Of a stretch of DNA of 64,000 nt, positions 3,326 to 61,489 are shown piece by piece (the stretch's first letter is position 1; each line of letters opens with the position of its first letter). The DNA is from Candidatus Multivorans azotirespirans. Its GTDB lineage: Bacteria; Acidobacteriota; Thermoanaerobaculia; Multivoradales; Multivoraceae. Location of the stretch: contig JAPVXD010000198.1 of the NCBI GenBank assembly GCA_027493095.1, forward strand, positions 30,253 through 94,252, written 5' to 3'. The notes below the pieces were generated by a model that saw only the letters and a list, made by a program, of their open reading frames with translations, made no database searches and was not told the origin of the DNA. A program made the position numbers and the translations under genes.

Positions 3326-3408
3326 CGCGGACCGCTGTTGATCCGCGGCTATGATCGAAGGACGCTGCTTTGCATTCCTGGGTTCACCCGCTCTTGGGAG
3401 GTAGTCGG

Positions 3409-5270: not shown

Positions 5271-5948
5271 TCAGCCGCTGAGCATCTTCTCCCTGCGCTC
5301 GGCGCGGGTGAACGTGAGGGCGACGATCGCCGCGATCGCGAGGGCGGTGCCGATGCGATTCTGAACGTTCAGCGCGAGCATCTGCGCCGCGTCCGCCTCT
5401 TCCACGGCGAGCGGGTTCCAGAACGGTGAGACGCGGAACGAACCGAACAGCCGGTTGAGGCCGAGGACGCCGATCGTGGCGAGGGAGCCGGCCACGTCGC
5501 TGCGGAACAGGGTCGCGAAGCCCATGGCGGCAACGAGGTAGAAGACGACTCCCTGCGTCGCGCCGTACAGGCCCTGGAGAATCGGGAATTCCGTGAAGAA
5601 GGCATAAGTCACGCCGGCGAGGAGGACCAGGCTGACCAGGAGCATCAGGATCGCGGCGGCGAGCTTGCCGAGCCAGACCCGATGGGCGCCTCCGGGAACG
5701 GTGTAGGCAATCTCGAGGCTGTGCTGATCGAGTTCGCCTGTGATGATCCGGCCGCCCAGGAAGATCGCGAGCACGGCTACCGGTACGCCGATCAGGCTGT
5801 TCTGCGCCGCCGCCGGCTCCAGGGCAGGTCGCATGCCGGCTACCAGCATGAGGGCCTGTACTACGAGCCACACCAGCGGCAGCAAGGGCAGCAGCCAGTA
5901 CCGGCGTCCGCCAAGCAACACCGCCGAGGTGCGAAGCAGCGTGATCAT
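5271..5948 (-). CDS. Polytopic membrane protein, probable ABC-2-type permease partner of the upstream nucleotide-binding domain
   Basis: 225 aa with ~6 predicted TM helices. Its ATG overlaps the stop of the RND-ABC fusion ORF (ATGA), implying translational coupling. Confidence 0.55.
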   Translation of the reverse strand: MITLLRTSAVLLGGRRYWLLPLLPLVWLVVQALMLVAGMRPALEPAAAQNSLIGVPVAVLAIFLGGRIITGELDQHSLEIAYTVPGGAHRVWLGKLAAAILMLLVSLVLLAGVTYAFFTEFPILQGLYGATQGVVFYLVAAMGFATLFRSDVAGSLATIGVLGLNRLFGSFRVSPFWNPLAVEEADAAQMLALNVQNRIGTALAIAAIVALTFTRAERREKMLSG

Positions 5949-8900
5949 GCCGGCGCCTCAGTACGCACCGCGCGCGCGAGCCACAGGTAACCGTCCTCCA
6001 GCGTAGGCTCGGCGGGGGCGGCCCGCTCGTCCGGGCGGCCGGCGGCGAGTACGCGAAGGCTGCTCGTGCCGTCCGGTTCGGGCTTCTGGTCTGCCAGCAC
6101 GGCGCCCTCGGGCAGCTCGGGCACTTCTTCTTCGCCCGCCGTCCGCCACGACCACACTCTGCCCTCGGCTTCGCGCGACAACGCGGCCGGGTGGCCGTCG
6201 AAGACCATTCGACCGCGGCTCAACACAAGGACGCGATCGCACGCTACCGCCACGTCTTCGACGACGTGGGTCGAGAAGAGCACGATCCGGTCCTTCGCGA
6301 GCCGTGAGAGCAGGTTACGGAAGCGGACCCGCTCGCGGGGGTCGAGGCCGACGGTCGGTTCGTCGACGACGATGATCGGAGGCAACCGGAGCAGCGTGCG
6401 CGCCACCGCAACGCGCTGTCGCATTCCACCCGAGTAGCCGCCGATCTGCTCGTCGGCGCGCTCGTCGAGCCCGACCTCACGCAGCAGCGTCGAAATGCGT
6501 TCGGCCCGTTCCGACGTGTCGATCTGGTAGAGGGCGGCGTAGTACTCGAGGTACTGGCGGGCGGTCAGCCGGGGCGGCAGGCCGGCGTCCTGGGGCAGGT
6601 AGCCGACGTAGCGCGCGAGGCGCGTTCGGACGCTGAGCAACGGAACGCCGCCGAGCGTGATCCGGCCCCGCGTCGAGTCGAGGATTCCAGTCAACTGCCT
6701 GAGCAGCGTCGTCTTGCCGGCGCCGTTCGGGCCGAGCACTCCGACCATGCCGCGTTCGGCCTCGAAGCTCACCGCGGCCAGGGCCTTGACGGTGTCGATC
6801 GGCAGGTCCAGACCGAACACCTTCGTTGCCGCGGCGCGCCAGAGGCGAAGGAGCTGACCACGCCAGCCCCTTGCGCGTCGTCGCCGGGAGGTCCGCTGTT
6901 CCCGGCGCATCGTCTCGAGCCGCGCCGTGCGGCGTCCGAGCTGAACCAGCAGAATGACCGTGGAGACGATGGCCAGCGCGATGAACCCTGCGACTTCAGG
7001 ATCGGCGACCATCTCCGGAACGACCAGCCAGGCGAGAAGCGCCCAGGACAGCAGGGCCGTCAGCACGCCCTCGACGCCGCCCGGTTTCACGCGCCCGAGC
7101 TCGTCGGCGTGGCCCCGGGCGCGTCGGATCTCACGCAGCAGCCGGGAACCGATCAGCAGGATGGCGATCAGGACTCCGAGGATGATCAGGCCGCCGGTCA
7201 TCCGCGCCGCCAGGGCGACGGCGCCGGCGAACAGGAGCAGGAGAGGCAGCAGCCGGTCACGGGCGTCGGCCGGCTCAAAGGCCCGGCCGCCCTGGGCGGC
7301 GACCCGCCTGGCGAAGTCGGCGGTAGCCCGCAGCGCCCGGCGCACCGGGCCGGGGAGGCCGTACGTCTTGCGCAGGTGGCGGACGACGAGCTTTGGTGGG
7401 CCGGCGGCCGTTTCCGGCTCGGGCGACGGCGGCTTCGGCAGCAGCCACACGGTGAGGCCGAGCAGCGCTCCGGCGATCAGCACCGTGGTCGTGATCTGCC
7501 AGAACATCGACTCGATCACGCCGAACGCGAACAGAGGCGCGGTCGTCGCGATGACGGCGCCGAGCCAGGTCAGCACGACCCAGGGGCCGACGCGGCTGAA
7601 CAGTTCGTCGAGGCGTCGCAGGAAGACGAAGCCGACCGGGATGACGAGCAACGTCAGCAGGGTCGCGGTCAGCAGGCCACCGATCACGAGCGTCGCAAAG
7701 GGCGGCCAGATCTCGTTCTCGCGCCCGGTCGCGATGGACAGGGGCGCCAGCGCCGCGACCGTCGTGGCGGACGTCATCAGGACCGGGCGCGCTCGCTCGC
7801 GGACGGCGGCGAGGGCGGCCGCGCCGGCGCTCCAGCCGGCGCCCAGCGTGTGCTGCTGCATTCGGTCGACGAGCAGGACGGCCGGGTTGATCGCCAACCC
7901 GAGCAGAACCAGTGCTCCGAGCAGAGCCATCGCCTCGAAGCCGATGCCGGTCAGGACCAGGGCCCAGACCGAGCCGAGCAGCGCGAGGGGAAGGGCGATC
8001 AGGACGAGGATTGGCAGCGTCATCGACTCGAACGTCACCGCCAGGACGAGGAAGACCAGAAGAACGACCGGCACCACGATGCGCCGGAACCAGTTCGTGC
8101 TCTCCCCGGAGCGGTCGAGCGCGATGGTCGTGCCCGCGGGCCGGTGGATGCTGGCGATCGCCTCGTCCAGGCTCCGGTCGAAGGCGTCGCGCGCCGGGCC
8201 CCGCCGCGGCACGTCCGGCGACAGGGTGTAGAAGACCTCCCGTTCGCGGACGCCGTTGTGGTGGGTGATGACCGGGGAAGGCGGCGCCTGCCGCACCTGC
8301 GCCAGGGCGGCGACCGGCAGGACTCCGGCCCCGGTCGAGACGCGGAGCCGCTGCAGCCCGCTGAGCGACACGTCGCGGTCGAGGCTGCTGTCGTTCGGGG
8401 GCTCGGCCTCGTCGCGCCGCTCCTCCGACCGTTGGACGACGATCGGCAACTCCCGCCCGCTGTCAAGCGGATAGCCGGTGTTGATCCTGGTCCCTTCGCG
8501 TCCGGCCAGATTCAGCATCGGCAGTACCTCGTCCAGGAGCACGCCGAACGTGTCGAAGGCGCGCCGGTTCGGACTCACGTGGAGTTCGTCGGGCCCTGGG
8601 CGTACCGCCGGATAGGCGCCTGCGATGCCCTCGATCTCCCGTAAACGCTCGGTGACCTGGGCCGCGAGGTCCGTCAACTGTTCGTTGTCGTTGCCGGAAA
8701 GGACGACCCGGGATGGGCCGCCGCCGAGCAGTTCCTGGGCGCCGCCGCCTCTGCCGCCTCCGCCGCCTCCACGTCCTCCCGGGCCTTCGCCCTCGCCCGG
8801 ATTGAGGAGTTCGGCGCCGGCGCGCCGGGCCGGGGGACGCAGCAGCTGCCGTACGCGTCTGGCCGTCAGCCCCTCAGGTCGCTCGTCTTCCTCCACCAGG

Positions 8901-10762
8901 TGGACGGTGAGCGATCCTCCCTCTTCCCGGATCATGCTCTCGACGCGGTCGACGCCCTCGACTTCCTGAATCGTCTCGAGACGTTCAAAGACGCGGACGG
9001 CGGAGTCGAGGCTTCCGCGGCCCTCGGGCAGGCGGACGGAGAGTTGGACCTGATCGGCGATAGGCGCCTGGCCCGGTCCGCTCGAAGCGACCAGGAACAG
9101 GGCGGCGATGACGCTCAGGACGACGGCCGTGACGACACCCGTGATCCAGCTCGCCGGCCGGCGCAGGGCGGAGGCAAGCACGCCCGCGAACAGAATCCGC
9201 GTGGGGTCGGGCGGCACCAGTCCGCCGAAGCGTTCGCGGCGTTGACGCAGCTTGGTCAACCGTCGAATCGCGGCCGGTGCCGCGAGATGCCGCGCCAGCA
9301 GGGGCACCAGTCCGATCGCCACCAGGAGGGAGCCGAACAGCGGCAGCAGGATGGCCAGCGACAGGAGCGCGATCAGGTTCTGGATCAGGGACGACTCCAG
9401 GTCGACGATGACGGCGGGCAGGAAGACGATCGCCGTCGTTACGGAAGCGGCGACGATGGCGCGGCCCGTACGCCGGATGCCCCCGGCCGCGGCGTCGTCG
9501 GGACTCCTGCCGCGTTCCAGACGGCGCTGGACGGACTCGAACACGACGACGCTGTTGTCCACGATGAGTCCGACGCCGATGGCCAGCCCGAAGAGCGTGA
9601 ACAGGTTGAGCGACAGACCGGCCACGTAGAGGAAGGAGAGAGCCACCGCCAGACTGACCGGCACGGCGACCGCGACCACGGCAACCGCGCGCCACTGGCG
9701 GAGGAAGAGGAACAGGACCAGGAGCGCGATTCCGAAACCCGAGAGACCGAGGTTCCGCAGTCGGTCGATCTGCGTTTCGACCAGGTCGGCGGCGTCGAAG
9801 CTCGGGAGCAGGCGGATGCCGAGGGGAGTGAACTCCTCGTTGATCTCATCGATCCGGCGGCGCAGATCGCGACCGAGCCGCACCAGATTGGCGCCTTCCT
9901 CCTGGAACACCATGACGCCGACCGACGGCTCGCCGTTGACCCGGTACAGCATCTGACGGCGGCCCGAGCCGATCTCGACGTCGGCCACGTGGCGAACCAG
10001 GACGGGAAGGTCGGGGACCACCCGGACCTCGCCCATCGACACCGGGCCGGCTGGCCGGCCGTCGAGCATCACCGCCGTCCGCCCTGCCTCGTCCTCCAGG
10101 CTGCCGAGGTAGCGGAGGCGTCCCGCCGCACCGCGCACCGCCGCGGTCACCTGCTCCGTCGTCACGCCGAGCGCGGCACAGCGGTTCGGGTCGACCCACA
10201 CGGTCAGCTGGCGCGAGGCGCCGCCGCCCAGCATCGCCTGGCTGACCCCCGGCACCGCGGCCAGCCGGGGCGTGATCATCTCGTCGACCAGATCGTACAG
10301 TGCATCCTCGTCGTCGGAACCGGTCACCTGCAGGATCATGGCGAAGCTCGAGAAGACACTGGTGTCGTCGGCCTGCACGTCCAGGAAGGCGTCTCGCGGC
10401 TGTGTCCGTGCGAGATCGGCGGCGATGCGGCGCATCTCGAGTTCGCGCACCTTGAGATCGACGCCGCGCTCGAAGCGGACGGTGAAGCTGCCGGCGGCGC
10501 CGCTGACCTCGCCCCAGGTCTCGGCTACCCGGGGCAGTGTCCGGACCCGGGCTTCGAGCGGCATCAGAATCTCCCGCTCGATCGTCTCCGGTTCGCTGCC
10601 CGGGCGGAAGAAACTGACGTAGAGCGAGTCGCCCGTGAGGGCAGGGAACAGTTCGACGGGAAGTCTCTGCCAGGCGAACCCGCCGAGCATGACGAGTGCG
10701 ACGAAGAACATCGTCACCGCCACCGGGCGGCGGATGGCGAGCGTGTCGAGACCGGCTTTCAC
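5945..10762 (-). CDS. RND-family permease (AcrB/MdtC-like) fused in frame to extra TM helices and a C-terminal ABC transporter ATP-binding domain (1605 aa)
   Basis: N-terminal ~1040 aa is a complete RND permease: RRPVAVTMFFVALVMLGGFAWQRLPVELFP, two large periplasmic loops and 12 TM helices. A 230-aa hydrophobic segment follows. The C-terminal ~290 aa carries Walker A GPNGAGKTT, signature YSGGMRQR, Walker B IIVVDEPTVGLD and H-loop STHVV. There is no stop codon between the parts; I checked the junction codons LVIPVGFVFLRRLDELFSRVGPW directly. Confidence 0.8.
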   Translation of the reverse strand: MKAGLDTLAIRRPVAVTMFFVALVMLGGFAWQRLPVELFPALTGDSLYVSFFRPGSEPETIEREILMPLEARVRTLPRVAETWGEVSGAAGSFTVRFERGVDLKVRELEMRRIAADLARTQPRDAFLDVQADDTSVFSSFAMILQVTGSDDEDALYDLVDEMITPRLAAVPGVSQAMLGGGASRQLTVWVDPNRCAALGVTTEQVTAAVRGAAGRLRYLGSLEDEAGRTAVMLDGRPAGPVSMGEVRVVPDLPVLVRHVADVEIGSGRRQMLYRVNGEPSVGVMVFQEEGANLVRLGRDLRRRIDEINEEFTPLGIRLLPSFDAADLVETQIDRLRNLGLSGFGIALLVLFLFLRQWRAVAVVAVAVPVSLAVALSFLYVAGLSLNLFTLFGLAIGVGLIVDNSVVVFESVQRRLERGRSPDDAAAGGIRRTGRAIVAASVTTAIVFLPAVIVDLESSLIQNLIALLSLAILLPLFGSLLVAIGLVPLLARHLAAPAAIRRLTKLRQRRERFGGLVPPDPTRILFAGVLASALRRPASWITGVVTAVVLSVIAALFLVASSGPGQAPIADQVQLSVRLPEGRGSLDSAVRVFERLETIQEVEGVDRVESMIREEGGSLTVHLVEEDERPEGLTARRVRQLLRPPARRAGAELLNPGEGEGPGGRGGGGGGRGGGAQELLGGGPSRVVLSGNDNEQLTDLAAQVTERLREIEGIAGAYPAVRPGPDELHVSPNRRAFDTFGVLLDEVLPMLNLAGREGTRINTGYPLDSGRELPIVVQRSEERRDEAEPPNDSSLDRDVSLSGLQRLRVSTGAGVLPVAALAQVRQAPPSPVITHHNGVREREVFYTLSPDVPRRGPARDAFDRSLDEAIASIHRPAGTTIALDRSGESTNWFRRIVVPVVLLVFLVLAVTFESMTLPILVLIALPLALLGSVWALVLTGIGFEAMALLGALVLLGLAINPAVLLVDRMQQHTLGAGWSAGAAALAAVRERARPVLMTSATTVAALAPLSIATGRENEIWPPFATLVIGGLLTATLLTLLVIPVGFVFLRRLDELFSRVGPWVVLTWLGAVIATTAPLFAFGVIESMFWQITTTVLIAGALLGLTVWLLPKPPSPEPETAAGPPKLVVRHLRKTYGLPGPVRRALRATADFARRVAAQGGRAFEPADARDRLLPLLLLFAGAVALAARMTGGLIILGVLIAILLIGSRLLREIRRARGHADELGRVKPGGVEGVLTALLSWALLAWLVVPEMVADPEVAGFIALAIVSTVILLVQLGRRTARLETMRREQRTSRRRRARGWRGQLLRLWRAAATKVFGLDLPIDTVKALAAVSFEAERGMVGVLGPNGAGKTTLLRQLTGILDSTRGRITLGGVPLLSVRTRLARYVGYLPQDAGLPPRLTARQYLEYYAALYQIDTSERAERISTLLREVGLDERADEQIGGYSGGMRQRVAVARTLLRLPPIIVVDEPTVGLDPRERVRFRNLLSRLAKDRIVLFSTHVVEDVAVACDRVLVLSRGRMVFDGHPAALSREAEGRVWSWRTAGEEEVPELPEGAVLADQKPEPDGTSSLRVLAAGRPDERAAPAEPTLEDGYLWLARAVRTEAPA

Positions 10763-10775
10763 GGCGCGTTCCGGT

Positions 10776-13700
10776 TCAGGCGTCCGCGGTCCGCCGGCGG
10801 CGCCGGGTCAGCCTCAGCGAGTCGAGAATCAGGTACAGGCAGGGCAGCACGAGCAACGAGCCCACCGTCGAGGTCACGATGCCGCCGATGATCGTGTAGG
10901 CCATCGGGCTGCGCAGTTCGGCCGCCTCGCCGGCGCCGACCGCGAGCGGCAGAAGAACGAGCACCGTGGTGAGCGTCGTCATCAGGATCGGCCGTAGCCG
11001 GATCGCGGCGGCCCGGGCCAGGGCGGCTCGCCGCTCGATGCCCGCGGCCATCAGCCGCCGCGCCGTGGCGATCAGGAGGACGGCGTCGTTCACTGCGACA
11101 CCCGCGAGCACGATCAGCCCGAGCAGGGCCATCACGCCGACCGGCCTGCCCATCGGCCCCAGCGTGCAGGCGACGCCGAGCAGGGCGAGGGGGATCGAGA
11201 ACAGCACGGTGAGCGGTTGCAGGAGGGACTCGAACGTTCCGGCGAGCACCATCAGGACGAGAACGATGGCCAGGATGCCCGCGAGTCGCAGTTCGGAGGT
11301 GGCGCGCAGACGTTCCTCCTCTTCGCCGGCCAGGCGCACGATCAGGCCGGGGGGAAGCTCTGTCGCCGAGATCGCGTCGTTCGCCGCGGCGATGGCACGT
11401 GGATAGTCGCTGCCCTCGGCGATTCTGGCGGTCACCTGCGCCACCCGCCGCTGGTCACGACGAAAGACCTCGCGCGCTCCCTCAGTCGGCACGAAGCGCG
11501 CGACCTGGCCGAGGACGAGATCGGCTCCGGCGCTGCTCGTGAAGCGCAGTCCGGCGAGCTCCTCGGGCCGGGGTTGGGGCAGGGAGAGAACGACGTGGCG
11601 TTCCTCGTCGCCGACCGACAGGAGCGTGACCCTGCGGCCGTCGAGCGCGGACTGGAGCACGCGGGCGATCGTCTCGAGATCGACCCCCAGGCCGTCGGCC
11701 ATCGCCCGGTCGAGTTCGATCCGCAGTTCGGGCGGGCCGCCCTCGAAGGACGAACGCACGTTCCAGAGTTCGCCATGGCCGGCAAGCGCGTCGCGGAGGC
11801 TGGTTGCCGCGGCCCGCAGATCGGGGAGCGACTGACCGGCGATCTCGACCACGATGGGCGGCCCGGACGAGCCCAGGGCTTCGGCGAGCGCCGAGGTTCC
11901 GACCTCCCATTCGATCTGGGTGTCGGGCAGATCGGTGAAGTTCGGAGACAGCGCGCCCACGAGCTGGCTGCCGGTGGGACCCTCGGCTGACAGGCGTACC
12001 AGGAGCCGGGCGGTGTTCTCCTCGGTCAGTTCAGTCGTGACCAGCCGGTCGTCCTCCGGCAGCCGCCCGACCTCGGCCTGAATCGCTTCGAGGTGCTCGC
12101 CGGCGGCCTGACGCACCGCCTCTTCGAGCGTGGATACCGCGGCCGCGGTCGCTTCGACGCGTTGGCCCGGTGGCCCGACCATGCGCACCGAGAACTGTCG
12201 CGGGTCGGCCGGCGGAAGGAGTTCGCTGCCCAGACCGAGCAGGACGTTCACCGCGGCCGCGGCGGCGAGCACGGCGGCGCCGACGACGAGCCAGCGCAGG
12301 CGGAGGAGGAACAGGACGAGTCGCTCCAGCGCACCGAAGGCCCAGCCGAGGGGACGCGCCTCGCTGTCGTCCGGATCGGCCGGCGGCGTGACGTCGGCAG
12401 CGTGTTCCGCCTCTGCGACCCCGGCCGCCGGTCTGGCCCGCGGCAGGAACCAGCGCGACAGGGCCGGAATCAGCATCAGCGCGACGGCGAGCGACGCGGC
12501 CAGCGAGGCGGTGACGGTGAAGGCGATGCCCTCGATCAGGCGTGCGGCCAGTCCCTGCACGAAGAGGACGGGCAGGAAGACGACGCAGGTGGTCAGCGTC
12601 GAGGCGGCGATCGCCCCGGCGACTTCGCCGGTACCGCGGGCGGAGCTCTCAGCCGCCGAAGCGCCGGGACGGTGGCGCCGGTGGATGCTCTCGACGACGA
12701 CGATCGCGTTGTCCACCAGCATGCCGGCGCCGAGTGCCAGTCCGGCCAGGGTGATGATGTTGAGCGAATGGTCCCAGAGCCGCATCGCGAACAGGGCGAC
12801 GAAGAGGGAGACGGGCACGGCGGAAGCGACGACCACGGTCGGACCGAGCGAGCGCAGGAACAGGGCCAGGACGACGACGGCCAGGGCGATGCCGACCAGG
12901 GCCGCGTTCTGCAGGTCGGCCATCGCATCCTCGACCAGGGCGGCGTCGTCGTTGACCATCGACACCTGGACGCGGGGCAGGTCGAGTTCGAGGTTCTCGA
13001 GCGCCGCGCGAACGGTCCGCGAGACCTCGACCGTGTTCGCGCCGGCCTCCTTGAACACCTGCAGGCCGACGCCCTCCTGGCCGTCGACTCGTACCAGGTG
13101 GTCGATCTCCCCGTGGACGACTTCGACCTCGGCGACGTCGGAAACGCGGATGGGCTGGCGGACCTGCTCGCCGCCCGACCCCGCCTGGGTGCGGTAGCGG
13201 ATGACGACTCGCTCCACGTCCCGCGGGTTGCGGAAACGGGAGATGCCGCGGACCAGGAAGACCTGGCCGCGATCCTCCAGGGTGCCGGCGTCGATGTCGA
13301 CGTTCTCGGCCACCAGGCGCTGCTCCAGTTGGCTCAAGGTCACGCCGAACGCCTGCAGGCGGTAGCGGTCGACCCGCACGCGGACCTCCAGGTCGCGGCC
13401 ACCTAGAACGCGCACCTCGGCGACGTCGGCGAGCTGCTCCATCGCCGGCGCCACCTGGCGTCGTGCCAGGCGCCGGAGTTCGGCGAGATCGGGGCCGCCC
13501 GGTTCGGAGGCCAGCCCCAGGGTCATGACCGGCGACTGCCTCGGGTCGAGCTGGCGGACCAGGACCTCGTCGACTTCGGGGTCGGCCGCGACCGGGTTGA
13601 TCGCCTTTTGGACTTCGATCAGCGCCAGGTCCATGTCGGCTTCCCAGTCGAAACGCACGGTGGCGATCAGCCGGCCGGTCCGGGCGACCTGCTGTACTTC

Positions 13701-13958
13701 GCGGATGCCGCGCACGGTGAAGAGGCGCTGTTCGACCTGTTCGCCGTAGAGCCGCTCCATCTCCGTCGGGGGCCGGTCGCCGGATCGCACCGCAACCACG
13801 ATCGTCGGCGAGCGCAGGTCGGGGAGAAGGTCGATCGGCAGTTCGCGCCACGACATCCAGCCCACGAGGGCGAACGCCAGCGCGGTGACCGTGACCGCTA
13901 CCGGTCGGCGGGCGGCGAGGCGGGCCGGGCCGGAACCTCCACCGGGAGCAGCGATCAC
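10776..13958 (-). CDS. RND efflux permease (HAE1/Mdt-like), first of two tandem RND genes
   Basis: 1060 aa with an AcrB-like N-terminus (RRPVAVTVTALAFALVGWMSWRELPIDLLPDL) and TM/periplasmic architecture. GGGAGG lies 10 nt before the GTG start. Stop is 13 nt before the next RND start. Confidence 0.9.
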   Translation of the reverse strand: MIAAPGGGSGPARLAARRPVAVTVTALAFALVGWMSWRELPIDLLPDLRSPTIVVAVRSGDRPPTEMERLYGEQVEQRLFTVRGIREVQQVARTGRLIATVRFDWEADMDLALIEVQKAINPVAADPEVDEVLVRQLDPRQSPVMTLGLASEPGGPDLAELRRLARRQVAPAMEQLADVAEVRVLGGRDLEVRVRVDRYRLQAFGVTLSQLEQRLVAENVDIDAGTLEDRGQVFLVRGISRFRNPRDVERVVIRYRTQAGSGGEQVRQPIRVSDVAEVEVVHGEIDHLVRVDGQEGVGLQVFKEAGANTVEVSRTVRAALENLELDLPRVQVSMVNDDAALVEDAMADLQNAALVGIALAVVVLALFLRSLGPTVVVASAVPVSLFVALFAMRLWDHSLNIITLAGLALGAGMLVDNAIVVVESIHRRHRPGASAAESSARGTGEVAGAIAASTLTTCVVFLPVLFVQGLAARLIEGIAFTVTASLAASLAVALMLIPALSRWFLPRARPAAGVAEAEHAADVTPPADPDDSEARPLGWAFGALERLVLFLLRLRWLVVGAAVLAAAAAVNVLLGLGSELLPPADPRQFSVRMVGPPGQRVEATAAAVSTLEEAVRQAAGEHLEAIQAEVGRLPEDDRLVTTELTEENTARLLVRLSAEGPTGSQLVGALSPNFTDLPDTQIEWEVGTSALAEALGSSGPPIVVEIAGQSLPDLRAAATSLRDALAGHGELWNVRSSFEGGPPELRIELDRAMADGLGVDLETIARVLQSALDGRRVTLLSVGDEERHVVLSLPQPRPEELAGLRFTSSAGADLVLGQVARFVPTEGAREVFRRDQRRVAQVTARIAEGSDYPRAIAAANDAISATELPPGLIVRLAGEEEERLRATSELRLAGILAIVLVLMVLAGTFESLLQPLTVLFSIPLALLGVACTLGPMGRPVGVMALLGLIVLAGVAVNDAVLLIATARRLMAAGIERRAALARAAAIRLRPILMTTLTTVLVLLPLAVGAGEAAELRSPMAYTIIGGIVTSTVGSLLVLPCLYLILDSLRLTRRRRRTADA

Positions 13959-13985
13959 GGTTGCCCGACCTCCCGGCGGGCGGCG

Positions 13986-15059
13986 CTAGCCGGACACCCG
14001 GACGCGTGTGCCGTCGGTCAGGGTTTCGAGTCCGCGCACAACGATCCGCTCGCCGATCTCGAGCCCCTGGCGGACTTCCGCGATCTCGTCGTCGCCGAGA
14101 CCGAGCACCACCTCGCGCCGCACGGCACGCTGACCGTCGAGCACGAACACGACCCGCCGGCCGCCGCGCTCGGTGACCGCTTCGCGGGGGATGACGGGCA
14201 CGGCGTTCCGTTGTTCCACGACCAGGGTCACCTCGACGAACATGCCGGGCCGCAGCAGGCCTCCAGGATTGTTGATCGCCACTTCGGCGCGGAAGGTGTG
14301 GGTTGTCGGATCGACTTCGGGGGACAGGCGGACGACCGCACCCTCGAAGGTGATGTCTTCCCAGGCGAAGTGTCGGAGCCGTCCCTTCTGGCCGGGGTGG
14401 ACCCGTGCGAGTTCCGGGCCCACAAGGTCGATGTCGGCCACGAGAGAGTCAACCGGGGCGATCCGCGCGACCTGGAACCCCGGCGACACGAGCTGGCCGT
14501 CCGCGATCGGCATGCCGCTCGTGTCGCGGGCAAGCTCCATCAGCACGCCCCCGATCGGGGTCAGCATTCTGGCGCGGTCTTCCGTCAGCAGGCTCTGCTC
14601 CCAGGTCGCCTTGGCGTCTTCGAGCGCGGTCTCGGCCCGGCGCAACTCCTCGGCGGCGATCAGTTCCTGCTGGAACAGCCGGGCGCGGGCGTCCCGCTCG
14701 GCGAGAGCGCCCTGGTAGGCCTGGTGCGTCGCCCCGACCCGGGCCGCGAGTCGCGCATCTTCGCCCGTGACTTCCGCGATCATCTGGTCGGGGACCACGC
14801 GATCGCCCTCGGCGAGCCGACTGCCGTTGTTGTTCCGCCCGATCTGGAGCCGACCCGGTGTCTCGACCTGGAGCACGATGCTCTCCGCGGCGCGCAGGGT
14901 GCCGGTGGCGACAATCAGGTCCTCCACATCGCCGGTCCGGACCTCGGCGGCGCTGACGGGGACCAGGAAGTCGACGGTGTCCGTGGTGCCTGCCGCGTCG
15001 CAACCCAGGACGAGCACGCAAGCGGCTGCCGCCGCGCCCAGCCACTGCCGCGCGCTCAC
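13986..15059 (-). CDS. Efflux RND periplasmic adaptor (membrane fusion protein), lipoprotein
   Basis: HlyD/MFP-like C-terminal half. The start is assigned to GTG at 15059 (VSARQWLGAAAAACVLVLGCDAAG lipoprotein signal), which overlaps the upstream gene's stop (GTGA). The longer upstream in-frame extension is Arg-rich junk. Confidence 0.8.
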   Translation of the reverse strand: MSARQWLGAAAAACVLVLGCDAAGTTDTVDFLVPVSAAEVRTGDVEDLIVATGTLRAAESIVLQVETPGRLQIGRNNNGSRLAEGDRVVPDQMIAEVTGEDARLAARVGATHQAYQGALAERDARARLFQQELIAAEELRRAETALEDAKATWEQSLLTEDRARMLTPIGGVLMELARDTSGMPIADGQLVSPGFQVARIAPVDSLVADIDLVGPELARVHPGQKGRLRHFAWEDITFEGAVVRLSPEVDPTTHTFRAEVAINNPGGLLRPGMFVEVTLVVEQRNAVPVIPREAVTERGGRRVVFVLDGQRAVRREVVLGLGDDEIAEVRQGLEIGERIVVRGLETLTDGTRVRVSG

Positions 15060-18000
15060 GGCGCCCCGCCTCCGCCGGTCGGGTCGGCGCCGGCGCCGTT
15101 GTCGAGGCGCACGAAGCGCACGGCGTCGGCAGCCACGACGTTGCCGGTCGTGTCGTTGCTCAGTTCGAGTTCCACTGTCCCCGGGGCGAGATCGAAGTCG
15201 CCCAGCACGGCCCAGCCGATGCCCGCTCCCTGGGCGTCGAAGTCGATGGGACGGGAGCTCCCGGCGTTTCTGAGTTCCAGGTCGTAGGTGCCGAGGTTCA
15301 GGCCGAAACTGACGTTGACCTGCACGCCGTCCCCGCCGTCGCGCGGGCGATCGCCTTCGTTTCCGATCCGCACTTCCCGCCTCACCTGGCCGCCGCCCGG
15401 CACCGGTGACAGGGAGGGTACGTGCATCTCCACCCGCCAGCGCCCGGCTTCGGGCAGTTGGGCAGTGTAGGTGGCGCGGCGGCCTCCGTCGCCCTGCGCG
15501 ATGAGCGCGGTGGTCCGGCGGTAGCGTCCCCAACTCGAAGGCTGTTCGTACCGGGACCAGTCAGCCGGAGTGCCGCCGAAGATCGAGTAGACGGGCAGGC
15601 CCTGGTCGGTTTCGAGCGTGGGGGCGAAGATGCCGGCAAGGCCGCCCTGGAGCCGCATGCCGTTCGCCTCGGCTTCGTCCGTTTCGACCGAGAAGCCGGG
15701 ATCCAGGTCGTCGACCACGATGGTGCCGGCGCCGCCATCGAGGAACGCCGGCGTCCAGTCGGCCGGCCGGACGCCGCGGAGCGGTTCACTGTCCGAGATC
15801 GCCTCGTCGTCGAGCCGGGGCAACTCGATGGAGAACTCACGGCGGTTCAGGGACAGGTACGGGGATGCGAGCATGGTCCCCGGCGGTCGGGACGTGACGA
15901 GTCCGAACTCGACCGTCGTGTGCCCGGGGATGAGGACCGGCTCGCTCGAGTCCCAGCGCGCGCCGCCGGGGGCACGGACGGCGTAGCGGAGCCGGAACAG
16001 GCCGGGCGCCGCCTCGCCGTTGCGGACGAACAGCCGGGTCTGGTACTGCGGCCCGCCCTGGTCGTCGTCCGGCAGGCGTTCCAGCTGCGCCGGGGAAACG
16101 AGGAAACCCGGCAGGTCCGTCTGGTGCAGGAAGTCGCCGACGAGACCGGGCAGATCGACACCCGCTTCCTCGGCGGCGCTGTGAAGATCGGCGGCGGTGA
16201 AGGTCGAACCCCGATGATCGCGCAGCAGGTTGGCGATCATCGCGGCGGTGCGCTCCCGCCCGGCGCCGTCGAGTATCGCCGTGGCCAGGGCGGAAGTCTT
16301 GAGGTAGAGCGCGTTCACGGCTTGCTTCGGGTTCTCCTCCACGTCCATGTCGGTCAGGGAGCTGCTGAGAACCGCGTCCCAGACACCGGGTCGGTCCGTG
16401 AGGGCCTTGACGATGCCACTGGCGGCCGAGCCGCCGCCGGCCGCGAACTGGCCGGTGAACCCCCCCTGCATCACGTTCGCCATCGTCCAGCCGAACTCGC
16501 GGTCGAACAGGTGAGCGGAGAAGTACGACTCGCCGCCGTTCACCAACTGGTTCACCAGGTTGTGGCACAGCGCTTCCAGCGCCAGGGCCTCCGGGCCTCG
16601 TGCGCCGGTCTGATACAGGAAGACATTGCGGATGCCGCCGGCCTCCAGGTTGCCGCCGGAGTAGTCGAGGCGGAAGAACTGCTGGAGCCCGTTCGCTTTC
16701 GCCCTGGGCAACCCGCCTTCCTCGTCCTCGAACCGCTCCGGATTGCGGAACCGGAACTCGAAGCGTGCGGTCGGCAGGCTGCTCTCGCTGATCAGCAGCA
16801 TGCCGGGCGGGGCGCGCTCGGTGTCCATTCGCCAGCCGCCGCCGTAGGAACGGAGCGTCCAGGGGACCTCGACGAGGCTGAACTGCCTGTAGGGATAGGG
16901 CATCCCCAGTTCGCGGGCGGTGGCGAAGCGGTCGGCGGCGACCTTCTCGATTTCGGCCCGGGCGTCGGCGAAGAAGTCCAGGTTGCGCAGGTGGTTCGGG
17001 TGGAACAGGAGTTCGACTTCGACTCCTTCGACCTGTGTCGTCCGGCGGTCGAATCTGCCCGCGACCAGCATGACCTCAGGCACCGGGCCGGCGGGCGCGA
17101 ATCGCTGGCTTTCGCCCGTGAGCTCGGCCATGCCCGGTCCCGCGACCGTCCAGCCGGAAGGGGTTCTGACCTCGAGGTCAAGCTCGAAGAAGTCCCGCGA
17201 GCGCCGTCGCGGGTCATCGGCGCCGACGGACGCGCCCGGACGTGGGAGCCACGCGAGAGATGCGGGGAGCGCGACGTGGCCGCGTTCGACGGAACCGCTC
17301 AGGCTGCCGAGCATGACGATCTGCGCGTCCTGCCACTCGCCGGTGTTGTAGTCGATCGCCGAATCCAGATAGGCGAAGCGGAGGTCGGGCCGTCCGCTCG
17401 CGCGCACCCGGATCCCGGTGACCTGGCCTGCCGGTGGCGTCGAGCCGAGGTGGACGTCGAGCAAACCGTTCTCGTGTTCGAAGTCGAGCGCCTCACCGGC
17501 AGCGTTCCAGACGCCCTCCACCCGCAGGCCTGGATTCAGGCTGAACATGGCTCCGGAACCGGTCGCGGGCAGGAAGTGGACTTCGAGGTCGAGGGCGAGC
17601 CGCCCGCCTCGTTCGATGCCGACCGAGCCCCGGATCGTCTGAAGGTCGACGATCGCTTCGGCACGCCGTTCCTCGTGTGCGGCGCGCCAGGCGTCCCTTT
17701 CGGCGATCTGGTTGCCGCTCCACGTGATCGCCGTGAAGATGAGGACGGCGCCGGCGGCCAGGCCCGCGCCGCCGGCAACCCCCCACAGGCGGCGCTTCGC
17801 GTCGTCGAGACGGGGGTGGATGGCGACCGCGGTGGCCAGCAGGCCCGCCGCGAGCAGGGCGAAGCTGCCCCGGTTCACGAAGTTGAAAGCGGTCCAGATC
17901 TGGGGCGCGACTTCCGAGATGTTGCTGATGAAGCCGCCGTTCAGGGCAAGCGGCGGCAGGAGGTAGACCGGGATTCTGAACGTCAGGAAGGTGCTGCCGG

Positions 18001-18589
18001 CGGCGAGCCCGATGCCCGCCAGGGCGGCGATCAACCGGTTGTTGCTGACCAGGGAGACCACTTGCACGAAGGCGACGTAGAGGGCTAGCGCCGGCAGTGC
18101 CTCGAGCAGGAGGTAGGCCCAGACCGAACTCCAGAGGGCAGGTTCGCCGACGTACCAGCCGAAGGCGGATCCCGCATGGCCGACCGTCTGGATGAGGATC
18201 ATGGCGGCGAACGCCACCCCCCAAACCATGAGCACGGTGCCGAGGAAGCGGCCGAGGACGAGCTCGGCGTTCGAGTAGGGCCGGGTGTCGAGCACTTCGA
18301 TGACGCGGTCACGACGGTCGCGGGCGCGCAGGTCGAAGGCGAGGAAGACGACCCCGAGCCCCAGGATCGTCGTCTGGAACTGGGCGGTCTGACTGAGCAG
18401 GAACTTGGGACTTATCGAACCGATCGTGGCGGAGAAGGACGAGAAGAGCCCGTGGATTACCCAGTAGTAGCCGTAGCTCACCAGGCAGGTGAGGATCGCG
18501 AGGCCCGAGAACAGCCAGAAGCGGAACAGGCGGCGAGTGGTCCGCATCTCGGTTCGGGCCAGCGACCAGACGTGGTCAAGCGAGATCAC
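15056..18589 (-). CDS. ABC-2 family permease fused to a ~880-aa extracytoplasmic domain with degenerate M1-aminopeptidase-like motifs
   Basis: N-terminal ~300 aa has 6 TM helices. The C-terminal domain contains GGNLEAGGIRNVF (resembles the GAMEN exopeptidase motif) followed ~25 aa later by ALEALCHNLVNQ where M1 enzymes have HExxH; both zinc ligands are replaced. GTG start overlaps the ATPase stop (GTGA). Confidence 0.7.
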   Translation of the reverse strand: MISLDHVWSLARTEMRTTRRLFRFWLFSGLAILTCLVSYGYYWVIHGLFSSFSATIGSISPKFLLSQTAQFQTTILGLGVVFLAFDLRARDRRDRVIEVLDTRPYSNAELVLGRFLGTVLMVWGVAFAAMILIQTVGHAGSAFGWYVGEPALWSSVWAYLLLEALPALALYVAFVQVVSLVSNNRLIAALAGIGLAAGSTFLTFRIPVYLLPPLALNGGFISNISEVAPQIWTAFNFVNRGSFALLAAGLLATAVAIHPRLDDAKRRLWGVAGGAGLAAGAVLIFTAITWSGNQIAERDAWRAAHEERRAEAIVDLQTIRGSVGIERGGRLALDLEVHFLPATGSGAMFSLNPGLRVEGVWNAAGEALDFEHENGLLDVHLGSTPPAGQVTGIRVRASGRPDLRFAYLDSAIDYNTGEWQDAQIVMLGSLSGSVERGHVALPASLAWLPRPGASVGADDPRRRSRDFFELDLEVRTPSGWTVAGPGMAELTGESQRFAPAGPVPEVMLVAGRFDRRTTQVEGVEVELLFHPNHLRNLDFFADARAEIEKVAADRFATARELGMPYPYRQFSLVEVPWTLRSYGGGWRMDTERAPPGMLLISESSLPTARFEFRFRNPERFEDEEGGLPRAKANGLQQFFRLDYSGGNLEAGGIRNVFLYQTGARGPEALALEALCHNLVNQLVNGGESYFSAHLFDREFGWTMANVMQGGFTGQFAAGGGSAASGIVKALTDRPGVWDAVLSSSLTDMDVEENPKQAVNALYLKTSALATAILDGAGRERTAAMIANLLRDHRGSTFTAADLHSAAEEAGVDLPGLVGDFLHQTDLPGFLVSPAQLERLPDDDQGGPQYQTRLFVRNGEAAPGLFRLRYAVRAPGGARWDSSEPVLIPGHTTVEFGLVTSRPPGTMLASPYLSLNRREFSIELPRLDDEAISDSEPLRGVRPADWTPAFLDGGAGTIVVDDLDPGFSVETDEAEANGMRLQGGLAGIFAPTLETDQGLPVYSIFGGTPADWSRYEQPSSWGRYRRTTALIAQGDGGRRATYTAQLPEAGRWRVEMHVPSLSPVPGGGQVRREVRIGNEGDRPRDGGDGVQVNVSFGLNLGTYDLELRNAGSSRPIDFDAQGAGIGWAVLGDFDLAPGTVELELSNDTTGNVVAADAVRFVRLDNGAGADPTGGGGAP

Positions 18590-19572
18590 GGGTGCGCCTC
18601 CTTCCCGGTGCCGTCGTCCACAGGTGGCGGCTCGGCGAAGTCGAGTTCGTCGTGCTCGCCGAAGTGCTCGTCGCTGACCAGAGCCTCCGCTCGGCCGCGG
18701 GCCACCATGAACGCGAGATAGCCCTCCTCGAGGGTGGGCGAGGCGGCGATCCGGGCGCCCTCGGGGACGCCGCCCGGCGCGGCAACCGCGCGGTATGTCG
18801 CCTCGTTCTGGCTGGCGGTGCGCGAGACGATCTCGAAATCGCCTTCGGGCTGCGGCGCGGACATCGGCAGGGTGAGCTCGAAGACCTGGCCCGCGGCTCG
18901 TTCGAGCAACTGTGTCGGCGAGCCCCGAAAAACGACTCGGCCGGCGTCGAGCAGGGCCAGGTCGTTGCAGCCGGTGCCGAGGTCGGCCACGATGTGGGTG
19001 GAGAGGATGATCGTCCGCTCCCGACCCAGCGTGGCCATCAGCTGGCGGAACCGGATGCGCTCCTCAGGGTCCAGGCCGACGGTCGGTTCGTCGACCACGA
19101 GCAGGCGGGGCCGGTGGATCAGGGCCTGCGCGATACCCAGGCGGCGGGTCATGCCGCCGGAGAGCTTCTTCACCTTGCGGTGGGCGACATCGCCGAGGCC
19201 GACGTTGTCGAGAACCGTGTCGACACGCTCGCGCCGGGCCGCGCGATCGTCCAGGCCGGAGAGATCGGCCAGCGTGTCCAGGACTTCCTCGACGCGGTGC
19301 AGCCGCCAGGCGCCGAACTCCTGGGGCAGGTAGCCCAGGTGGGCGCGGACGGCGCGGCGCTCCTTGACGGCGTCGTGGCCGAAGACGGTCACGCTGCCGG
19401 CGGACGGCTTGAGCAGGGTGCAGACGATCCGCATCAACGTGCTCTTGCCGGCCCCGTTCGGTCCGAGCAGACCGAACAGGCCCGCCCCGATCGAGAGGTC
19501 GACCCCGTCGAGGGCGACCGTGCCTCCCTTGTAGACATGCCGAAGACCCTGCACGTCGACAGTCGTGCTCAC
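18586..19572 (-). CDS. ABC transporter ATP-binding protein (ABC-2/DrrA-like), first gene of the cluster
   Basis: Walker A GPNGAGKST, signature LSGGMTRR, Walker B LLVVDEPTVGLD. GAGGAGGAGAG RBS lies 5 nt before the GTG start. It is a paralog of the C-terminal domain of the fusion ORF. Confidence 0.9.
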   Translation of the reverse strand: MSTTVDVQGLRHVYKGGTVALDGVDLSIGAGLFGLLGPNGAGKSTLMRIVCTLLKPSAGSVTVFGHDAVKERRAVRAHLGYLPQEFGAWRLHRVEEVLDTLADLSGLDDRAARRERVDTVLDNVGLGDVAHRKVKKLSGGMTRRLGIAQALIHRPRLLVVDEPTVGLDPEERIRFRQLMATLGRERTIILSTHIVADLGTGCNDLALLDAGRVVFRGSPTQLLERAAGQVFELTLPMSAPQPEGDFEIVSRTASQNEATYRAVAAPGGVPEGARIAASPTLEEGYLAFMVARGRAEALVSDEHFGEHDELDFAEPPPVDDGTGKEAHP

Positions 19573-19788
19573 GATAGCTCTCCTCCTCGCTGTCTATACG
19601 GTTGTCGGCGGGGCTTGGTTTACTCGCGCGCGTCGATTGCCTGGCAGTGCCTACCGTAGCGCCTTTCCGTTCCGTGAAACCGGATCGTGTTCGCCAGCGT
19701 AAACTGAGTAGTCGTATAGTATGTCGCGCAAGGCGGGCTGACTGCGCCCGCCAACAACGCTGGACACCAGACCTCACGGAGACCTCGA
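19573..19788. promoter_or_regulatory. Divergent promoter/operator region between the transporter cluster and the cytochrome-monooxygenase-like gene
   Basis: At 216 bp this is the least GC-rich stretch nearby. It contains inverted repeats CTATACG...CGTATAG about 105 bp apart, GTTTACTC/TACTCAGTTTAC, and the GC hairpin GCGGGCTGACTGCGCCCGC (19733-19751). Confidence 0.4.
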
Positions 19789-21267
19789 ATGAACCGTCCC
19801 CAGATCTCGTCCGTGACCCGGCTGCTCGCCCTCGGCGCCCTCGCTTCGCTGGCCCTTGCCGGCGCTGCCTCGGCTGCCGCGGTCGACCCCGAGCCGATTA
19901 CCTTCTACGCTGACGTGGCGGCCGTGCTGCAGCAGGAATGCCAGGTCTGCCACCGTCCCAACGGCGCCAACCTCGGCGGCATGGTGGCGCCGATGGCGCT
20001 CACGACCTACGAAGAGACGCGTCCCTGGGCGCGCTCGATCGCGCGCCAGGTCGCGACGCGGGCGATGCCTCCGTGGGACGCCGCGCCCGAGCACAACGGC
20101 GTCTTCGCCAACGAGCGCACGCTGACCCAGAAGCAGATCGATCTCCTCGTCCGCTGGGCCGAATCCGGCGCTCCCGCGGGCGATCCCGCGGACGCTCCGG
20201 CGCCGATCGAGTGGCCGAGCAGCGACGGCTGGCTGATCGGGGAGCCCGACCTCGTCCTCCAGTTCGACGAGCCCTACTTCGTCGAGGACGACGTCGATGA
20301 TCTCTACATCTACTTCAAGACGAGTGTGACCGACGAGATGATCCCGGAAGACCGCTACGTCAAGGCGATCGAGTTCCGGCCCGGCAGTTCGGCGGTTCAC
20401 CACATCATCGTCCCCGGCCTGGGTGGCATCGCCCCGGGCAACGACCCGGTGATCCACACGGACGGCATGGCCGACGTGCTGAAGGCGGGCCGCGATCTGC
20501 AGTGGCAGATGCACTACCACAAGGAGCCCGGCGAGGGCACCGGCGTGTGGGATCAGTCCTCGGTGGCGCTCAAGTTCTACGACAAGGACGAGGACGTGAA
20601 GTACGAGGTCTTCAACGCCGACATGGGCAAGTACGACTTCGCCGTGCCGCCGGGCGCCTCGGACTACACGATCCAGACCGAGTGGACGTTCCCTTCGGAC
20701 TCCGAGATCGTCGGCTACCTGCCGCACATGCACCTGCGCGGCAAGGCGGCCAAGTACGAGGCCTACTACCCGGACGGCAGCCACGAAGTCCTGCTCGACG
20801 TGCCGAACTACGACTTCAACTGGCAGACCACCTACAAGTACAAGGAACGCAAGAAGATGCCGGCCGGCACTCGCGTGGTCCTGACCACGGTGTTCGACAA
20901 CTCGGAGAACAACCCGGCCAACCCGGACCCGACCGCGACGGTCCGCTGGGGCGAGCCGACGACGGATGAGATGAGCTTCGGCTTCGTGTCGTACATCAAC
21001 GAGGAGAACAAGGGGCGCGGCGCCTTCCAGGGCGACGACGGCCTCGACCTGACGGCGGTCGTCGCGTTTTCCGACGACAGCCGCGACGGCAAGATGCAGC
21101 TCGAAGAGGCTCCTGGCGGGGTCAAGCAGTACTTCGAGATGATGGACCAGAACAAGGACGGCGCCGTCGACATGGAGGAGGCGAAGGCCGCCAACGCCTT
21201 CCTCAAGCAGATGGCCGAGCAGCGGGAGAAGGCTGAGGCCGCGGCTGCCGGAGCCGCCGGCGGCTAG
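19789..21267 (+). CDS. Secreted c-type cytochrome (PSCyt1-like domain) fused to a copper type II ascorbate-dependent monooxygenase-like (PHM/DBH-like) domain with a C-terminal EF-hand
   Basis: GGAGA RBS and signal peptide are present. CQVCH haem-binding motif sits in a PSCyt1-like context (…MPPW…IDLLVRWAESGAP). HH (SAVHHIIV), HMH (LPHMHLRG) and a distal Met are arranged like the CuH/CuM sites. DQNKDGAVDMEE matches the EF-hand loop consensus. Confidence 0.7.
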   Translation: MNRPQISSVTRLLALGALASLALAGAASAAAVDPEPITFYADVAAVLQQECQVCHRPNGANLGGMVAPMALTTYEETRPWARSIARQVATRAMPPWDAAPEHNGVFANERTLTQKQIDLLVRWAESGAPAGDPADAPAPIEWPSSDGWLIGEPDLVLQFDEPYFVEDDVDDLYIYFKTSVTDEMIPEDRYVKAIEFRPGSSAVHHIIVPGLGGIAPGNDPVIHTDGMADVLKAGRDLQWQMHYHKEPGEGTGVWDQSSVALKFYDKDEDVKYEVFNADMGKYDFAVPPGASDYTIQTEWTFPSDSEIVGYLPHMHLRGKAAKYEAYYPDGSHEVLLDVPNYDFNWQTTYKYKERKKMPAGTRVVLTTVFDNSENNPANPDPTATVRWGEPTTDEMSFGFVSYINEENKGRGAFQGDDGLDLTAVVAFSDDSRDGKMQLEEAPGGVKQYFEMMDQNKDGAVDMEEAKAANAFLKQMAEQREKAEAAAAGAAGG

Positions 21268-61412: not shown

Positions 61413-61489
61413 GCGCCTGTAGCTCAGCCGGATAGAGCGGCGGATTCCTAATCCGCAGGTCGGAGGTTCGAGTCCTCCCAGGCGCACCA
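61413..61489 (+). tRNA. tRNA-Arg (anticodon CCT)
   Basis: Cloverleaf drawn by hand: acceptor GCGCCTG/CAGGCGC, anticodon stem GCGGA/TCCGC with loop TTCCTAA, T-arm GGTTCGAGTCC, encoded CCA end. Confidence 0.9.

Follow-up and report, generated by a model that had tools for sequence, protein, structure and literature searches.

Resistance-nodulation-division (RND) pumps, which are driven by protons, and ATP-binding cassette (ABC) transporters, which are driven by ATP, are treated as separate power sources for export across the Gram-negative envelope, which cooperate loosely at most. A cluster of six genes from Candidatus Multivorans azotirespirans, located at positions 5271-19572 of a 64,000-nt window (the whole stretch of contig JAPVXD010000198.1 that was analysed; GC content ~70%; positions are given in window numbering), raises the question of what a locus that encodes parts of both kinds, and joins two of them in one polypeptide, is for. 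The analysis described below demonstrates that the system combines two known kinds of transporter in covalent linkage, through an RND permease fused to an ABC ATPase domain, and suggests that the six gene products act as one export machine.

A conserved fusion of an RND permease with an ABC ATPase

The initial annotation of the window had proposed six minus-strand open reading frames (ORFs) in a fixed order, with assigned domains and mostly overlapping junctions. All six were present in the ORF listing where they had been placed, and every detail was borne out by the ORFs, by Pfam and NCBIfam matches and by the sequence itself. In the order of transcription, the cluster consists of:

18586..19572, minus strand: NBD1, a stand-alone ABC ATPase (nucleotide-binding domain, NBD) of 328 amino acids (aa) with a DrrA/GldA/NosF-type C-terminal domain; ABC_tran, 108.8 bits
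15056..18589, minus strand: PermG, an ABC-2-like permease of 1177 aa; weak ABC2_membrane_2 match and Golvesin_C match
13986..15059, minus strand: RND periplasmic adaptor, a lipoprotein of 357 aa; RND_mfp and TIGR01730 (158.1 bits)
10776..13958, minus strand: RND1, an RND permease of 1060 aa; ACR_tran, 665.7 bits
5945..10762, minus strand: RND2-NBD2 fusion of 1605 aa; ACR_tran and ABC_tran matches within a single ORF
5271..5948, minus strand: PermS, an ABC-2-like permease of 225 aa with six membrane helices; ABC2_membrane_2 at E 0.0025, below the cut-off

The tandem RND permeases with one adaptor (two ACR_tran matches and one RND_mfp match), the two ABC-2 modules flanking the RND genes (both permeases being under the Pfam ABC-2 cut-off) and the fusion of an RND permease to an ATPase domain, all pointed out in that annotation, are real. 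The modules were as it described them, but it had overlooked six additional membrane helices of the fusion, the probable splitting of the fused ATPase domain, a carbohydrate-binding-like module of PermG, non-canonical relay residues of the RND permeases and a TolC-like gene in a divergent cluster.

The 1605-aa fusion is 100% identical to two independently assembled proteins, P0001 and P0002. Its full-length relatives were found in more than 120 protein clusters, with identity down to 53%, and an alignment of 12 sequences is conserved from end to end. Because of this conservation we consider the fusion a genuine gene; a gene-calling artefact, a pseudogene or an assembly artefact is ruled out by the end-to-end conservation together with the independent identical assemblies.

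Third-position GC is high in all six ORFs, as in real genes of a genome with ~70% GC. The junctions, read 5′ to 3′, are GTGA, GTGA, 27 nt including GGGAGG, 13 nt, and ATGA, the last one being the overlap of the PermS start with the stop codon of the fusion. With GTG 15059 as its start, the adaptor has 357 aa and is identical over its full length to a public protein. The number of terminator-like sites inside the cluster, six, is at chance level (4.8 +/- 2.2 expected in shuffled sequence). In public records PermG and PermS are each called a "hypothetical protein", and the fusion is named either an ABC protein or an RND permease.

Conservation of the six-gene order

When species-representative genomes, one for each species, were scanned, at least 577 stretches that encode a relative of the fusion were confirmed. 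Analysis of loci was carried out on the best 80 of these at least 577 stretches, which contain full- or near-full-length matches with identity down to ~44%. Hosts of the best 80 belong to Acidobacteriota (Holophagales, Thermoanaerobaculia, "Ca. Multivorans", Vicinamibacterales and Mor1, an uncultured cyanobacterial associate), to Gammaproteobacteria (Pseudomonadales) and to Desulfobacterota; one genome is labelled as Bacteroidota and one as Planctomycetia. Every host found is uncultured, and the habitats are marine, sponge-associated or sediment.

The gene-neighbourhood comparison proposed with the initial annotation was made by tblastn with the six window proteins. All six genes stand in identical order in 54 of the 66 assessable loci, amid unrelated flanks. 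These loci span Acidobacteriota, Gammaproteobacteria, Desulfobacterota and the Bacteroidota-labelled genome; the Planctomycetia-labelled contig ends upstream and holds the last four genes only. All-against-all clustering of flanking ORFs revealed gene families common to close relatives and none shared between lineages, so that no conserved accessory genes were detected across lineages by this clustering. Since the order is kept while the flanks differ between lineages, the six genes form a conserved unit. The RND1 and RND2 paralogs co-occur in all six-gene loci, and wherever a locus extends far enough downstream, PermS adjoins the fusion or follows it at a short distance. A tblastn search with the linker region of the fusion against 72,556 plasmids produced no match.

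A divergent cluster (L087 9085-23366; a second one is L086) has the same gene order, with 37% identity for RND1, 30% for the adaptor and 24% for PermG; its fusion is ~33% identical in the only segment that can be aligned. On the Azotimanducaceae chromosome OZ242170 three tandem PermG paralogs of 1164, 1181 and 1192 aa (L085 10001-22549) have no adjoining ATPase gene, and the same genome carries the fusion and PermS genes alone at a distant locus, L073.

Several homologs of the fusion are longer. P0081 (L089 10001-15631), P0071 and P0073 have 1840-1876 aa, their RND part being preceded by ~287 additional N-terminal residues in which a Sigma70_r4_2-like match is located. At L089 two copies of PermG are located in tandem upstream of the extended fusion.

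A six-helix tether and a probably split ATPase domain

The following parts of the fusion were distinguished:

7595..10762, minus strand: RND2 part, aa 1-1056; ACR_tran, 484 bits
8702..8800, minus strand: glycine-rich loop in the second periplasmic half of RND2, aa 655-687; alignment
7442..7585, minus strand: two extra membrane helices after RND helix 12, aa 1060-1107; AlphaFold2, hydropathy and alignment
7361..7390, minus strand: predicted strand β1 of NBD2 with the A-loop tyrosine, "LVVRHLRKTY", aa 1125-1134; model and alignment
6791..7360, minus strand: 190-aa insertion with a predicted amphipathic helix, four membrane helices and a basic helix; AlphaFold2, topology and HMMER
5945..6790, minus strand: remaining part of NBD2 (aa 1325-1605), running from β2 through the C-terminal domain, plus the stop codon

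An AlphaFold2 model of aa 885-1605 was built from an 83-sequence alignment (predicted local distance difference test score, pLDDT, 84.4; predicted template modelling score, pTM, 0.68). In the model, RND helices 8-12 are followed by two helices (H176-195 and H202-223 in model numbering, corresponding to aa 1060-1107 and conserved in the 12-sequence alignment), a confident strand at aa 1125-1134, an amphipathic helix, four membrane helices at aa ~1164-1288, a basic helix and the remainder of the ATPase. The helices of the insertion are mostly at pLDDT 72-93. The topology predicted from hydropathy and charge distribution places all long loops in the cytoplasm and fits the positive-inside rule.

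Strand β1 is invariant in the fusion alignment and matches the start of NBD1, "VQGLRHVYKGG", including the A-loop tyrosine. From this tyrosine to the next strand there are 5 residues in NBD1 versus ~190 in NBD2. The ATPase domain of NBD1 is contiguous and that of NBD2, with 190 residues between β1 and β2, is not. From the model we infer that NBD2 is split, β1 being parted from β2 onward by the four-helix membrane insertion and probably pairing with the rest of the fold. As shown by the model, the six helices together form a tether that would pin NBD2 to the membrane beside the RND permease.

A HMMER search with the linker, aa 1050-1325, returned 33 matches among 1.84 billion representative proteins, and every full-length one is an RND fusion; as judged from these sequences, the 190-aa insertion is specific to the fusion family. 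The sole candidate for a stand-alone helix-inserted ATPase, P0241 (539 aa), turned out to be a frameshift-split fusion on a contig with 2x coverage and was rejected. In the fusion of L086 and L087, very different in sequence, two helices, β1, four helices and Walker A likewise follow one another.

The RND2 part contains a glycine-rich loop of ~30 residues, NPGEGEGPGGRGGGGGGRGGGAQELLGGGP, which is glycine-rich in all 12 aligned fusions, while RND1 has ordinary sequence at this place. When the second periplasmic half of RND2 (aa 560-880) was compared with the PDB, glycine linkers alone were matched and no solved RND structure was found by sequence.

ATPase domains and ABC-2-like permeases

The initial annotation had regarded the stand-alone and the fused ATPase as paralogs, and they share 37% identity over 270 residues, C-terminal domain included. 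Walker A, Q-loop, LSGGM, DEP and STH motifs of NBD1 are conserved in 51 orthologs, and in both NBD1 and NBD2 the Walker A, Q-loop, signature, Walker B glutamate (E1468 in NBD2) and H-loop are all kept across the families. By these motifs, both domains are predicted to be catalytically competent. Their fold is nearest to ABC-2-class domains with a C-terminal domain, NosF (7osf, 7qba) being among the top structural matches. The best NCBIfam matches of NBD1 are DrrA and GldA, both under cut-off; the GldA equivalog scores are 187.6 for NBD1 and 170.7 for NBD2 versus a cut-off of 402.6.

An AlphaFold2 model of PermG (pLDDT 87.6, pTM 0.85) has 6+1 membrane helices and a periplasmic domain of ~880 aa, and three regions can be delineated:

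17705..18589, minus strand: membrane domain, aa 1-295, with a predicted interface helix, six helices and a seventh helix leading the chain into the periplasm; model
16100..17662, minus strand: predicted periplasmic domain of M1-aminopeptidase fold, aa ~310-830, without the zinc motif; Foldseek
15107..16087, minus strand: C-terminal beta-sandwich region, aa ~835-1161, ending in Golvesin_C (CBM6/35/36-like, CBM standing for carbohydrate-binding module); Pfam and profile

The loop after helix 2 of PermG is conserved as "FLAFDxRARDxRxRxxEVLDxRPxSN" and is rich in basic and acidic residues; PermS, with six hydrophobic segments, has an analogous conserved loop after helix 2. Profiles of PermS and of the PermG membrane domain can be aligned collinearly over helices 2-6 (hhalign E 6e-5, probability 64%), and a permease ortholog in L073 matches ABC2_membrane_2 with E 5.7e-5. 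By sequence, both permeases look like ABC-2 membrane domains. Source annotations put both in the NosY group ("multi-copper enzyme maturation permease"), and the PermS family comprises 1091 clusters. No solved structures related by sequence to PermG or PermS were found.

Foldseek aligned PermG aa ~310-830 with IRAP, ERAP1, EryP and PepN over ~620-680 columns (E 2e-16 to 1e-14), and weak profile matches of PermG to 6iff and 8t41 were obtained. The degenerate peptidase-like domain noticed in the initial annotation can thus be assigned an M1 fold (Foldseek E ~1e-16). PermG has no Peptidase_M1 Pfam match. The HExxH motif is absent from the window protein and from 90 of 91 homologs; the site expected for the zinc motif is occupied by "HNLVN", which is not conserved. 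Because the motif is missing in 90 of the 91 members, the domain should be a pseudo-peptidase. At the C-terminus, aa 1109-1161 match Golvesin_C (35.6 bits, cut-off 31.6), and with a profile of the PermG family a match to xanthan lyase 6f2p of Paenibacillus, in the C-terminal module of this enzyme, was obtained. The Golvesin_C domain type has been grouped with carbohydrate-binding modules (PMC9166713). By analogy, the C-terminal module of PermG appears to be carbohydrate-binding-like.

Two RND paralogs and their adaptor

RND1 and RND2 are distinct paralogs with 31% identity. Against ACR_tran (cut-off 28), RND1 reaches 665.7 bits, with profile positions 3-1020 of 1021 covered, and RND2 reaches 484 bits; RND2 also covers positions 3-1008 of 1009 in NF033617. 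Scores with the HAE1 and multidrug subfamily models TIGR00915, NF033617 and NF000282 are 371, 534.6 and 398.8 for RND1 and 281.5, 376.6 and 324.4 for RND2, and the respective cut-offs of 940, 1250 and 1250 are reached by neither protein.

In RND1, D416-N417 in helix 4 and N957-D958 in helix 10 are invariant in the 67 sequences covering these columns. The corresponding residues of RND2, D402-N403 in helix 4 and N959-P960 in helix 10, are invariant in 82 sequences except for P960 (79 of 82), and map to AcrB D407, D408, K940 and N941 in an alignment to the solved pump 8zxs. At these four AcrB positions RND1 has D, N, N and D, and RND2 has D, N, N and P. RND2 residues R990 and T997 (AcrB R971 and T978) are invariant in the 12-sequence alignment. 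We take the paired aspartates on helices 4 and 10 to be like those of MmpL3, as a lead only.

The adaptor scores 158.1 against a TIGR01730 cut-off of 94.9 and has a lipobox, "VLVLGC". In the divergent cluster an OEP/TolC-like gene (L087 13363-14970) is located between PermG and the adaptor; such a gene is part of the cluster in L086 and L087 only.

Comparison with known systems

As in MdtABC-TolC, a single adaptor gene precedes a tandem pair of genes for paralogous RND permeases, and an outer-membrane channel would usually be encoded elsewhere. The MdtB and MdtC models give scores of 320.4 and 345.8 versus cut-offs of 1584 and 1774, yet are among the better NCBIfam matches. Unlike in MdtABC, RND1 has D-N/N-D and RND2 has D-N/N-P in place of the D-D/K relay, the second permease bears six extra helices and an ABC ATPase, and the operon includes two ABC-2-like permeases and a second ATPase.

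The ABC part is similar to NosDFY(L) and GldAFG in combining an ATPase that has a C-terminal domain with NosY-like six-helix permeases and a large periplasmic domain. GldA and GldF are among the best NCBIfam matches, with GldF at 21.7 versus 288.5, and all equivalog cut-offs are missed. In contrast to NosDFY and GldAFG, the periplasmic domain is fused to the permease and combines an M1 fold with a CBM-like module instead of the NosD beta-helix or GldG; the ATPase domains are of two kinds, as are the permeases, and an RND pump is joined to one of the ATPases.

MacAB-TolC and YbhGFSR are ABC transporters working with an adaptor of the RND type (background in PMC5985334, PMC8277102, PMC7190983). 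As in these systems, an ABC ATPase, permeases and a membrane-fusion-protein adaptor are encoded together, and ATP would be coupled to a periplasmic domain and an exit duct. MacAB and YbhGFSR, unlike the present system, contain no RND permease. MacB has a four-helix type-VII fold with an N-terminal ATPase, whereas the ABC part here is of the ABC-2 type and the adaptor adjoins two RND permeases.

PermG aa ~310-830 shares its overall multi-domain fold with the M1 aminopeptidases IRAP, ERAP1, PepN and the lanthipeptide peptidase EryP. It differs from them in having ~10% identity and, in 90 of 91 members, no HExxH, and in being periplasmic and tethered to an ABC-2 membrane domain.

Leader and neighbouring genes

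The region upstream of the first gene is shared with a divergent gene:

19573..19788, minus strand: leader and promoter region, common with the divergent gene; sequence read

A ribosome-binding site of NBD1, AGGAGGAG, is located at ~19580-19587, ~7 nt ahead of the GTG start. No sigma-70-like promoter was detected on the minus strand, a negative of little weight for the phylum of the host, and no Rfam family was matched in 19573..19788.

The cluster is bounded by genes of unrelated function on the opposite strand, 19789-21267 (plus) and 3370-4488 (plus). The former encodes a 492-aa protein with weak matches to cytochrome c, the copper type II monooxygenase C-terminal domain and EF-hand, and nothing ties this gene to the cluster in other lineages. 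The latter (372 aa) and another ORF, 23819-24676 (plus, 285 aa), have strongly coding-like third-position GC and are without a Pfam match. Further away, a PQQ/BamB-like beta-propeller gene (26000-27421) is followed by an ORF (27418-30756, plus) whose 1112-aa product, with a PD-(D/E)XK nuclease domain at its C-terminus, presumably resembles AddB-type nucleases. A tRNA-Arg (CCT) gene at 61413-61489 (plus) is the sole Rfam or ARAGORN match in the window.

A proposed composite exporter and its alternatives

We propose, with a probability of roughly 0.55, that the six genes encode one envelope-spanning export machine that uses both ATP and the proton-motive force. Its RND module would comprise RND1, RND2 and the lipoprotein adaptor, with a TolC-like channel usually encoded elsewhere in the genome. 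The ABC module would be of type V (ABC-2, similar to NosFY, GldAF and ABCA), with NBD1 and NBD2 as ATPases and PermG and PermS as membrane domains. NBD1-PermG and NBD2-PermS, each pair probably being translationally coupled, may assemble into a heterodimeric ABC unit attached to an RND trimer of both paralogs, in which case the presence of two RND paralogs would set a defined number of ATPase domains per trimer; this pairing and stoichiometry are part of the proposal. Upon ATP hydrolysis, the ABC unit would extract, flip or present cargo on the periplasmic platform of PermG, made of the non-catalytic M1-aminopeptidase fold and the carbohydrate-binding-like module. The RND pump, presumed to be proton-driven, would then take the cargo from the periplasm or the outer leaflet and pass it out via the adaptor and the outer-membrane channel. 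Judging by the platform, the cargo may be an envelope or secreted molecule that bears peptide or glycan, and not an ordinary small drug.

Several observations weigh against this proposal. There is no obvious numerical match between an RND trimer and an ATPase dimer. Both RND paralogs are without equivalents of D408 and K940 and so have no AcrB D-D/K triad; with the canonical relay absent, proton coupling is an assumption. ABC2_membrane_2 scores of PermG (23.8 bits) and PermS (17.5 bits) are below the cut-off of 27.2. No outer-membrane channel gene was found by Pfam among 10 neighbouring genes, and a homolog of the L087 OEP protein was detected by tblastn neither in the 64-kb window nor in 87 of the 89 loci. 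Scattering of the modules among relatives, which the initial annotation had named as an argument against a common cluster, is not the case in most loci; in six Pseudomonadales/Azotimanducaceae loci, however, the fusion and PermS are alone within 10 kb and are surrounded by unrelated genes; closed genomes with this two-gene variant include OZ242170, OZ241909 and OZ220466. The modules are therefore separable in a minority lineage and linkage to the remaining four genes is not universal; NBD2 may work with PermS in the absence of NBD1 and PermG.

The main competitor, to which we give tentative standing, holds that the ABC module is a mechanotransducer similar to NosDFY, FtsEX or LolCDE and moves nothing across the inner membrane. 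ATP would reshape the pseudo-peptidase/CBM domain of PermG to capture, load or release cargo for the RND pump, or else this domain would anchor or gate the pump relative to peptidoglycan or polysaccharide. The closeness of the ATPase fold and its C-terminal domain to NosF and the NosY-group annotation of both permeases are consistent with such a role, as are the ~880-aa periplasmic domain fused directly to the membrane domain of PermG, the lack of a catalytic motif in its M1-like part, which fits binding or a scaffold function, and the CBM-like C-terminal module. Sequence and fold are, however, equally compatible with substrate translocation, and substrates are in fact moved by some ABC-2 exporters that have large outer domains, the ABCA family being an example. 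That the system represents a hybrid transporter of a new class, with mechanical coupling of ATP hydrolysis to the proton-motive force inside one complex, appears doubtful; in this reading the tethered ATPase, covalently joined to an RND protomer with an incomplete proton relay, would drive or gate the RND cycle itself and not just supply the pump with substrate. Still less likely is an RND pump that is ATP-assisted or ATP-gated by NBD2 (as a dimer with NBD1 or with itself) acting on RND2 through the six-helix tether, such that NBD2 replaces a weakened proton relay or switches the pump on and off while PermS and PermG serve as accessory stators. We know of no precedent for an ATP-coupled or ATP-assisted RND pump. 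RND2, besides having no D408 and K940 equivalents, is unlike RND1 also without an acidic residue in helix 10; its rigid covalent link to the ATPase is kept even in the clade with ~33% identity (in one alignable segment), and the fusion with PermS alone in six loci would suit this arrangement. On the other hand, RND2 retains D402, R990 and T997 (AcrB D407, R971 and T978), so a proton path is possible, RND1 has the identical D-N change in helix 4, and PermS and PermG have typical ABC-2 coupling loops, as in real ABC membrane domains.

The composite exporter must also be set against a further explanation, namely that two or three independent transporters (a homodimeric NBD1-PermG ABC-2 exporter, an RND1/RND2-adaptor pump, and NBD2-PermS) are merely co-transcribed and that the fusion is a neutral accident fixing their expression ratio or co-localisation. 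The overlaps of NBD1 with PermG and of the fusion with PermS are like those of ordinary ABC pairs, the fusion and PermS can occur without the rest, and PermG paralogs are present at another locus in one genome. Yet the elaborate six-helix linker is kept across phyla and in the ~33%-identity clade (again over one alignable segment), no unfused form of the helix-inserted ATPase was found among the HMMER matches of the linker, and the six-gene order is conserved when the flanks are not. Because the conserved linker occurs in fusions only, we consider this explanation very improbable.

Implications

No description of this RND-ABC system was found in full-text literature searches. Here one conserved polypeptide unites RND and ABC, through an elaborate joint seen only in this fusion, in a system that is spread over several hundred species-level genomes of several phyla and in which two of the six proteins are still called hypothetical. 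Two structural oddities stand out, an ABC ATPase domain whose predicted fold is interrupted by membrane helices, and a periplasmic M1-aminopeptidase fold that is catalytically dead and belongs to a transporter. Should the complex assemble in the proposed way, it would be a natural example of a single machine in which an inner-membrane transporter passes its cargo on to an RND pump; alternatively, it may be an RND pump controlled by ATP. Either way, the long-debated questions of how cargo enters RND pumps and how they are energised would become testable on a single assembly.

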